From positions 32,001 through 96,000 of IMG/VR virus record IMGVR_UViG_3300019370_000055: a DNA stretch of 64,000 nucleotides; one strand, given 5' to 3'. Positions 54,765 through 54,992 of the stretch are shown here, piece by piece. The DNA is from a virus (taxonomy: Duplodnaviria > Caudoviricetes). The notes below the pieces were generated by a model. It searched no databases. It had not been told where the DNA came from and was given only the letters and a program-made list of their open reading frames with translations. The position numbers were made by a program, and so were the translations under genes. Position 1 is the first letter of the stretch; the number at the start of each line of letters is the position of its first letter.

Positions 54765-54992
54765 ATCGGGCATTCTGTCCAGAATTTATTATGGAATGTT
54801 GGCTTAGAAGCAGCCATCATCTAAGGAGTAGATCGAACCACTGTTAAGTGCGAAATGCTTTATGTCGTACTACTTATCAATGAAAGTGGCATGAAGTGAT
54901 GTGCTGACAGAAAAATGGGGCTGGCTGATATATTTATCAGAATCTTTTGGCGTAATAGCACACCATAATAAATTCTGAATAGAGTGTCCGAT
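54765..54992 (+). ncRNA. RNA mimicking 23S rRNA helices 43-44 (L11-binding domain)
   Basis: ATGTTGGCTTAGAAGCAGCCATCAT...GCGTAATAGC inside a stem of about 29 bp. Confidence 0.75.

Follow-up and report, generated by a model that had tools for sequence, protein, structure and literature searches.

A phage RNA family that copies helices 43 and 44 of 23S rRNA around a variable insert, with host uL11 as candidate partner

The GTPase-associated centre of bacterial 23S rRNA (Escherichia coli positions 1051-1108) is the minimal domain for the binding of ribosomal protein uL11 and of thiostrepton. Its tertiary pair U1060-A1088 is contacted by Gly130-Thr131 of the C-terminal domain of uL11, and the bases A1067 and A1095 are tied to thiostrepton binding (PMC2175356). 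The pair 1082:1086 is a Watson-Crick pair that closes a five-base turn and is needed for folding (PMC6689051). H44 is also the target of a toxin, as Tre23 ADP-ribosylates it at 1095-1098, with the GTPase activity of EF-G being severely impaired (PMC8661411). Copies of rRNA protein sites outside the ribosome are known from the autoregulatory leaders of ribosomal protein genes (for example L10_leader in Rfam), and phages are known to carry copies of host RNAs that plausibly compete in trans, namely the pseudo-ToxI antitoxin RNA (PMC3475682) and phage tRNA arrays. Small stable RNAs that are co-located and co-oriented with phage tRNA genes have been described as well, as in the case of rnaC and rnaD (species 1 and 2) of phage T4.

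To these systems we can add an RNA element from a phage genome of 124 kb and of gut origin, which is located in the window, that is, in the 64-kb stretch of DNA analyzed here. The element copies H43 and H44 of 23S rRNA (E. coli 1055-1104) on top of a closing stem (Table 1). As reference we used a true 23S rRNA fragment in a Paenibacillus phage record (L002), and 45 of the 48 core positions in the two halves of the element are identical to it. Two of the three differences make up the pair 1082:1086, which has changed jointly from U-A to C-G and is thus compensated. E. coli numbers are obtained by subtracting 53739 from the position in the 5' half (G1055 = 54794, A1067 = 54806, U1090 = 54829) and 53859 in the 3' half (G1091 = 54950, A1095 = 54954, C1104 = 54963). 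The original prediction, made from this sequence without database searches, had placed an H43-like string of 36 nt at 54793-54828 and an H44-like string of 14 nt at 54950-54963, with an insert of about 120 nt between them and a stem of about 29 bp below. Both strings are found in these places and lie 121 nt apart, and in the closing stem 28 positions are paired, with one C.A mismatch and three G.U pairs, while three further pairs are possible out to 54764/54993, giving a stem of 28-31 bp. It had also been stated correctly that no other rRNA sequence is nearby, since no rRNA family matches in the 64-kb window, nor at E ≤ 10 in the surrounding 1 kb. A true 23S rRNA gene or fragment was rejected as identity of the locus, as there is no LSU rRNA match (in the window, and in the local 1 kb at E ≤ 10), the flanks pair together and the two halves are separated by the insert of 116 nt.

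Table 1: Features of the RNA element and two genes downstream of it (positions in the window; numbers from 1055 to 1104 are those of E. coli 23S rRNA).
Feature	Position	Strand	Evidence or remark
Whole RNA element, 224 nt	54767-54990	+	Fold z = -6.6; R1 match; one copy in genome
Closing stem, 5' strand, in place of top of H42 (G54794 = G1055)	54767-54794	+	Pairs with 54963-54990
H43-like hairpin (1056-1081)	54795-54820	+	Same as true 23S over 1057-1081
1067 loop, A1067 = 54806	54804-54812	+	Within H43-like hairpin
Five-base turn (1082-1086), C-G closed	54821-54825	+	C54821-G54825
GAGU (1087-1090), base of H44 including A1088	54826-54829	+	Invariant in 77/77 members
Insert, 116 nt	54830-54945	+	Splits H44 between 1090 and 1091
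Insert closing stem, 4 bp	54830-54833 with 54942-54945	+	Covaries in family
Long irregular hairpin of insert	54838-54918	+	Compensatory changes versus L039
Short hairpin of insert	54925-54940	+	Fold
UUUG linker from insert back to H44	54946-54949	+	UUUGGC in 75/91 (sample anchored on 5' half)
H44 hairpin and 3' strand (1091-1103)	54950-54962	+	Sequence match, family conservation
H44 hexaloop GUAAUA, A1095 = 54954	54952-54957	+	Commonest family variant type
Closing stem, 3' strand (C54963 = C1104)	54963-54990	+	Pairs with 54767-54794
YunG-like gene	55009-55296	+	PF24591, E 5e-13
Fused polynucleotide kinase-phosphatase-Rnl1-type RNA ligase	56193-58385	+	PF13671, PF00149, PF09511; phrog_8238, E 1e-221

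The region folds with -87.9 kcal/mol compared to a mean of -59.0 for its shuffled versions (z = -6.6), and none of 200 shuffles was as good. The structure of the core itself rests on covariation, since hard constraints in the ViennaRNA fold did not force the rRNA-like pairs. The tertiary set of the rRNA domain is present with U54799 (U1060), A54827 (A1088), the pair C54821-G54825 and A54795 (1056), which together with this pair forms the triple A/C/G. All sequence determinants for uL11 binding that were checked are present in the element. The H43-like hairpin and the hexaloop (G-U-A-N-N-A closed by G-C and C-G; 54950-54959) correspond to the commonest variants in the family described below, and U1090-A1101 takes the place of the A-U or U.U of rRNA. 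More particular to this lineage is the closing stem, which is the longest among 133 members (median 9 bp) and shares its length only with the two sister loci L039 and L235. The changes relative to these sisters are compensatory in two cases and one-sided in three, and pairing is disrupted in none. The long hairpin of the insert contains a motif that is common to about ten other members. An ORF at 54677-54847 overlaps the 5' half of the element and was rejected as a gene, as it is interrupted by stops in both sister loci.

Judged by its sequence and plan the element is a member of a large family of phage RNAs. By blastn against cultured phages the H43-like core was located in stretches without annotation in the genomes of several large phages, and carriers were found among phages of Cronobacter (GAP32), Serratia (BF), Erwinia (several), Xanthomonas (XaC1, XbC2 and XacN1), Pectobacterium (CBB), Pseudomonas (pf16, UNO-G1W1, Milchi and Astolliot) and Aeromonas (4_4572). 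Their loci follow a common plan of closing stem, H43 copy, GAGU, insert, UUUG, H44 hairpin and closing stem. Paenibacillus phage Pd_22F and several short 'phage' records from the same search carry true 23S fragments and do not belong to the family. For IMG/VR we used two independent half-site patterns. The pattern for the 3' half matched at least 118 loci, with 106 of the matches listed having the 5' half upstream, and the pattern for the 5' half matched at least 115 loci, from which 91 distinct elements with the 3' half downstream were obtained; no true 23S rRNA was present among the matches listed for this second pattern. Combined, the matches listed for the two patterns gave 132 distinct elements. 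In bacterial assemblies the 3'-half pattern mostly matched by chance, and real members, with the 5' half present as well, make up only 7 of 120 loci.

From 32 short members, leaving out the window and both sister loci, we built a covariance model (R1). It matched the window over its full model length (1-159) at 54783-54974 with 113.7 bits and an E-value of 1e-34, the top score of 12 sources, and this was the only copy in the 124-kb genome. One copy each was detected in five cultured carriers, and the true 23S centre (L002) reached 63.4 bits. As blastn also matched the element to annotated 23S rRNA, a chance match can be excluded. Over the window at gathering thresholds, and over the local 1 kb at E ≤ 10, Rfam 15 offered no family for the element, the only match near it being a weak RAGATH-27-like one upstream, and a full-text literature search found no published description of such a family. 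We therefore regard the family as a new kind, undescribed in Rfam 15 or in the literature searched, and the window as one more member of it with lineage-specific features. This leaves an annotation gap in hundreds of phage genomes, in which the locus is blank or called a small hypothetical protein. The latter was seen in Erwinia phage Kaldavass (L007:1533-1625) and Pseudomonas phage Milchi, where the calls over the RNA are probably false gene calls.

In order to judge selection on the structure we analyzed 27 specified pairs in 70 members. Standard pairs account for 88.5% of the cells compared to 67.0% in shuffles, and the covariation score was 0.572, a value that none of 500 shuffles reached, versus 0.157 after shuffling; sliding the partners by 1-3 columns as a control gave 0.10-0.19. 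In the closing stem all 11 tested pairs change on both sides. The pair 1058:1080 occurs as UA, GC, AU and CG, the pair 1057:1081 as AU and CG, and 1055:1104 has turned from G-C to A-U in nine members. H44 is compensated at 1091:1100 (U-A in L133) and at 1092:1099 (U-A in L145), and all four pairs of the insert closing stem covary, the first three of them being 92-100% paired and using GC, AU, UA and CG. The tertiary contacts follow the same line: U1060 and A1088 are invariant (77/77), the pair 1082:1086 is U-A in 39, C-G in 24 and A-U in 12 members, and position 1056 tracks it, with the triples G/U/A in 31, A/C/G in 21 and G/A/U in 12 of the 77 members. Position 1061 is U, A or G, its A variant being the classic stabilizing change of the 58-nt domain. 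Purifying selection on fold, tertiary contacts and ends is thus evident in more than 100 phages. The original prediction of a selected mimic is supported by these compensatory changes, which affect every helix and two tertiary contacts, and conserved homologues, on which it depended, do exist with more than 130 distinct relatives and covariation well above the shuffled level.

These data also decide on the trivial explanation that the locus is a non-functional scrap of host 23S rDNA or an assembly contamination. The high identity to 23S rRNA would fit, and some phage records, namely L002 and several of the blastn matches, do contain true rRNA fragments. However, the flanks are not rRNA, more than 130 phages from many hosts have the insert at exactly the same site, extensive compensatory changes are seen and the lineage of the window is syntenic in three independent assemblies, so that this explanation can be regarded as refuted.

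A closer look at the single bases showed which parts of the copied domain are conserved and which drift. Replacements in the 1067 loop affect A1067 in 8, G1068 in 16 and A1070 in 16 of the 77 members. In the hexaloop, counted in a sample anchored on the 5' half only, G1093 and A1098 are present in 91/91 and U1094 in 90/91 elements, whereas A1095 is G or C in 10/91, 1096 is G in 20/91 and 1097 is U in 44, C in 35, A in 11 and G in one. Fold and uL11 contact are therefore conserved more strictly than the bases that are read by translation factors, by the antibiotic or by Tre23. Invariance of the structural bases and of the uL11 contact, as opposed to drift at the contacts of factors and antibiotic, speaks for a partner of the RNA by which the fold is read, and most simply this partner would be host uL11. 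The best-supported reading, with a probability of about 50%, is that the free-standing RNA imitates the minimal uL11-binding domain (1051-1108) and binds host uL11 away from the ribosome. The original prediction had suggested titration of L11/L10 or of translation factors, or a decoy for a ribosome-targeting defence, as possible roles. Binding of L10 is unlikely, since the copy of H42 is limited to its top and the stem below is free sequence with a median of 9 bp, which suggests that the uL10 site has no copy here. The drift at A1067, A1095 and 1096-1097 makes mimicry directed at factors, thiostrepton or a toxin less likely.

The same drift bears on the idea that the RNA is a decoy for a host weapon directed at the GTPase-associated centre, be it an ADP-ribosyltransferase, a nuclease or a methyltransferase. 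Titrated by the RNA, the effector would leave the ribosomes intact, in analogy to the phage tRNA arrays that make up for tRNAs lost to cleavage by defence nucleases. A toxin for exactly this site exists with Tre23 (PMC8661411), the family is found in tRNA arrays and the window phage carries an RNA-repair kinase-phosphatase-ligase 1.2 kb downstream. Yet the bases read by the toxin are the least conserved ones, with A1095 changed in 10/91, 1096 being G in 20/91 and 1097 being any base, an anti-phage system aimed at this site was not found in the literature search, and the repair gene is not a conserved neighbour. We therefore consider a decoy rather unlikely. As a side observation, the downstream gene (730 aa, located within the same RNA-rich region) joins a polynucleotide kinase (AAA_33), a metallophosphatase and a T4 Rnl1-type RNA ligase and thus represents a complete RNA-repair set in one protein.

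The genomic setting gives hints on how the RNA might be made. Among 105 elements 49 have a tRNA on the same strand within 300 nt and none has one on the opposite strand; in 53 of 133 (about 40%) a same-strand tRNA lies at most 30 nt from the end of the closing stem, and in pf16 and UNO-G1W1 it fills a gap between the genes of the tRNA array. Such a setting suggests a stable RNA that would be produced and trimmed along with the tRNAs. A tRNA directly adjoining the element on its strand, a frequent and not a universal feature of the family, is not found in the window. There the plus strand around the element is rich in RNA, with tRNA-Ser, tRNA-Ile and tRNA-Arg at 48.4-53.7 kb, and in the direction of the element the tRNAs are followed by a small gene (phrog_1491), a structured RNA at 54345-54737 and then the mimic. 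The closest tRNA on the same strand is tRNA-Arg at 53581-53658, 1.1 kb upstream. ARAGORN called tRNA-Ser(UGA) with 91 nt at 48372-48462 (+) and tRNA-Ile(UAU) with 94 nt at 50076-50169 (+), both scoring under the gathering threshold of the Rfam tRNA model; the latter call is unusually long and might contain an intron or be a tRNA-like RNA. The structured RNA at 54345-54737 (+) lies directly upstream of the mimic and is conserved in both sister loci. Its first 84 nt resemble RAGATH-27 with 36.2 bits, below the family cut-off of 76.1, and the rest shows no resemblance. Elsewhere in the window a skipping-rope RNA (RF02924, 55.3 bits) was found at 5928-6019 (-), inside a minus-strand cluster of five tRNAs at 5734-7398. 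The score of a promoter-like site at 54737-54766 does not exceed what chance would give, and the sisters do not preserve its spacing.

In the absence of flanking tRNAs it is plausible, though speculative, that RNase III cuts the 28-31-bp stem and thereby releases the RNA from a polycistronic transcript. The five longest closing stems of the family all lack a nearby tRNA. Long closing stems as a general stand-in for tRNA flanks as processing sites were not supported, as stem length showed no overall difference between members with and without tRNAs family-wide (p = 0.24). Another explanation would be a local cis element, in which the long stem-loop is an RNase III processing or stabilizing site or a translational operator for the YunG-like gene. 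The stem would be of the right size for RNase III, and the five longest stems without nearby tRNAs agree with such a role. Moreover, the ribosome-binding site of the YunG-like gene begins 5 nt past the closing stem, its start lies 19 nt downstream of the RNA and the arrangement is kept in L039 and L235. But this leaves a precise, covarying copy of an rRNA domain in the loop without explanation. In addition, the flanks are tRNAs and not genes in the 53 relatives mentioned above, the downstream genes vary among lineages and the p-value for stem length gives no support. As the sole function of the RNA a cis element is very unlikely; it could be an added role in the window lineage only.

A search for protein-coding neighbours conserved across the family was negative outside the sister phages. 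Both L039 and L235 carry the YunG-like gene and one lies near the RNA in a second lineage as well, making two lineages in total, the RNA-repair genes gave only weak partial matches, and a DUF6273 gene is located between the YunG-like and the RNA-repair gene of the window. The host of the window phage is probably a member of the Clostridia, as L235, a scaffold from Clostridiaceae bacterium strain 9 and one of the seven real members in bacterial assemblies, is syntenic with the window across seven genes; the strong Shine-Dalgarno sites in the window fit this assignment. The L235 scaffold (65.7 kb, in an isolate assembly), in which both RNAs are syntenic along with the seven genes, gives a clue to the host and may offer a system in which this lineage can be cultured.

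If the copied domain were a mere handle for uL11 or a GTPase and a source of stability, the variable insert might carry the activity and the RNA would be an adaptor or scaffold for a phage protein or another part of the ribosome. The inserts, which set the spacing of the two halves, range from about 24 to 379 nt, and they consist of recurring modules shuffled between lineages, together with a conserved closing stem, which would fit such an adaptor. However, it is the copied domain that stays constant in the family and not the insert, some members have inserts of only about 24-55 nt, the window copy lacks the commonest insert module even though its sister L039 has it, and a conserved protein neighbour is missing. 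An adaptor is thus an unlikely explanation. The module in question is found in about half of the family (for example L039:2615-2820, L004:1491-1690, L006, L030 and L111) and consists of a hairpin whose GNRA-like tetraloop reads GAGA, GAAA or UAAC, with a UAA bulge and GG coming after it. Our guess is that it is a tertiary docking element. Inspection by eye argued against a sarcin-ricin loop or a kink-turn, as the tetraloop varies and the flanks do not fit. Two further variations were observed. A minority of members (L059, L016, L087, L114, L122, L091, L124, L088 and L048) has the 1067 hairpin and the 3' half without the usual 1082-1090 segment after H43, which suggests a second architecture or an insert elsewhere. 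In the GAP32 lineage of jumbo phages (L001:1488-1760, which is GAP32, L005, L007, L008 and L010) five U follow directly after the closing stem in the manner of an intrinsic terminator, which suggests that the 3' end is made by termination in this lineage.

Returning to uL11 as the preferred partner, we propose the following model. A stable non-coding RNA would be made from 54767-54990 and would rebuild the top of H42, H43 and H44 as a separate molecule. It would be cut from a longer transcript, by tRNA-processing enzymes in the relatives that adjoin tRNAs and here perhaps by RNase III at the long stem. The freed RNA would bind host uL11 off the ribosome and might, speculatively, act in trans as a sponge or as an imitation of the stalk base. 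Lower occupancy of uL11 on the ribosomes could then blunt RelA-dependent alarmone signalling during infection; this speculation builds on a link between uL11 and RelA that is deduced from textbook uL11 biology. Equally speculative is the alternative that the surface formed by uL11 and RNA is presented to some partner. The variable insert leaves H44 at a fixed point and is assumed to stabilize the RNA or to add a second binding surface. It counts for the model that genes for uL11, bL12 and RelA/SpoT were not found in the 124-kb genome, nor a uL11 gene in the five cultured carriers. Against a uL11 sponge it can be said that the insert could hinder the binding of uL11 or factors, and that a sponge might have little effect if the pool of free uL11 is small or if uL11 stays firmly bound to the ribosome.

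More tentatively, and with odds below even, the sequence data might be extended to the reading that large phages of many bacterial phyla share a trans-acting counterfeit of an rRNA domain, which would capture host uL11 or factors that read the uL11-RNA surface and reprogram translation control. Stringent signalling through RelA could in this way be silenced, for example, or a ribosome-directed defence diverted. If this is true, the family would provide the first case of a virus that encodes an rRNA-domain mimic, and phage take-over RNAs would gain a new class. If members do bind uL11, phages would manipulate the translation machinery with a counterfeit piece of rRNA, a strategy that was found for no virus in the literature searched, and the exchange of uL11, the control of the stringent response and ribosome-targeting immunity could be studied in infection. 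Cultured systems for such work already exist with Pseudomonas phage pf16, Cronobacter phage GAP32 and Aeromonas phage 4_4572. The family also represents a natural mutational scan of the 58-nt GTPase centre, a classic model of RNA folding.

With T4 rnaC and rnaD the family shares the location next to tRNA genes and no relation in sequence or structure; R1 scored 8.2 bits (E 0.88) in the T4 tRNA/rnaC/rnaD region, which is not significant, and they were rejected as relatives. A ribosomal-protein leader was rejected as well, as no leader family matched at E ≤ 10, the downstream gene is YunG-like and the genome contains no uL11 or bL12 gene. Unlike the known leaders, the window RNA is far closer to rRNA and is encoded by a phage, and its family is often flanked by tRNAs. 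The difference to pseudo-ToxI and to phage tRNAs is that an rRNA domain is copied, not an antitoxin or a tRNA. The closest likeness is to the GTPase-associated centre of bacterial 23S rRNA itself, with which the window shares, besides the core identity, the same helices, the 1067 and 1095 loops, the U1060/A1088 contact, the closing pair 1082:1086 and C1072 with C1092-G1099. In contrast to the rRNA, however, the phage RNA is a free-standing molecule of about 224 nt and not part of a 2.9-kb rRNA, a plain terminal stem stands in for H42, the lower part of which (the uL10 region) is missing, an insert of 116 nt and a UUUG linker are placed between 1090 and 1091, the pair 1090:1101 is U-A, and throughout the phage family the bases that contact the factors are free to vary.
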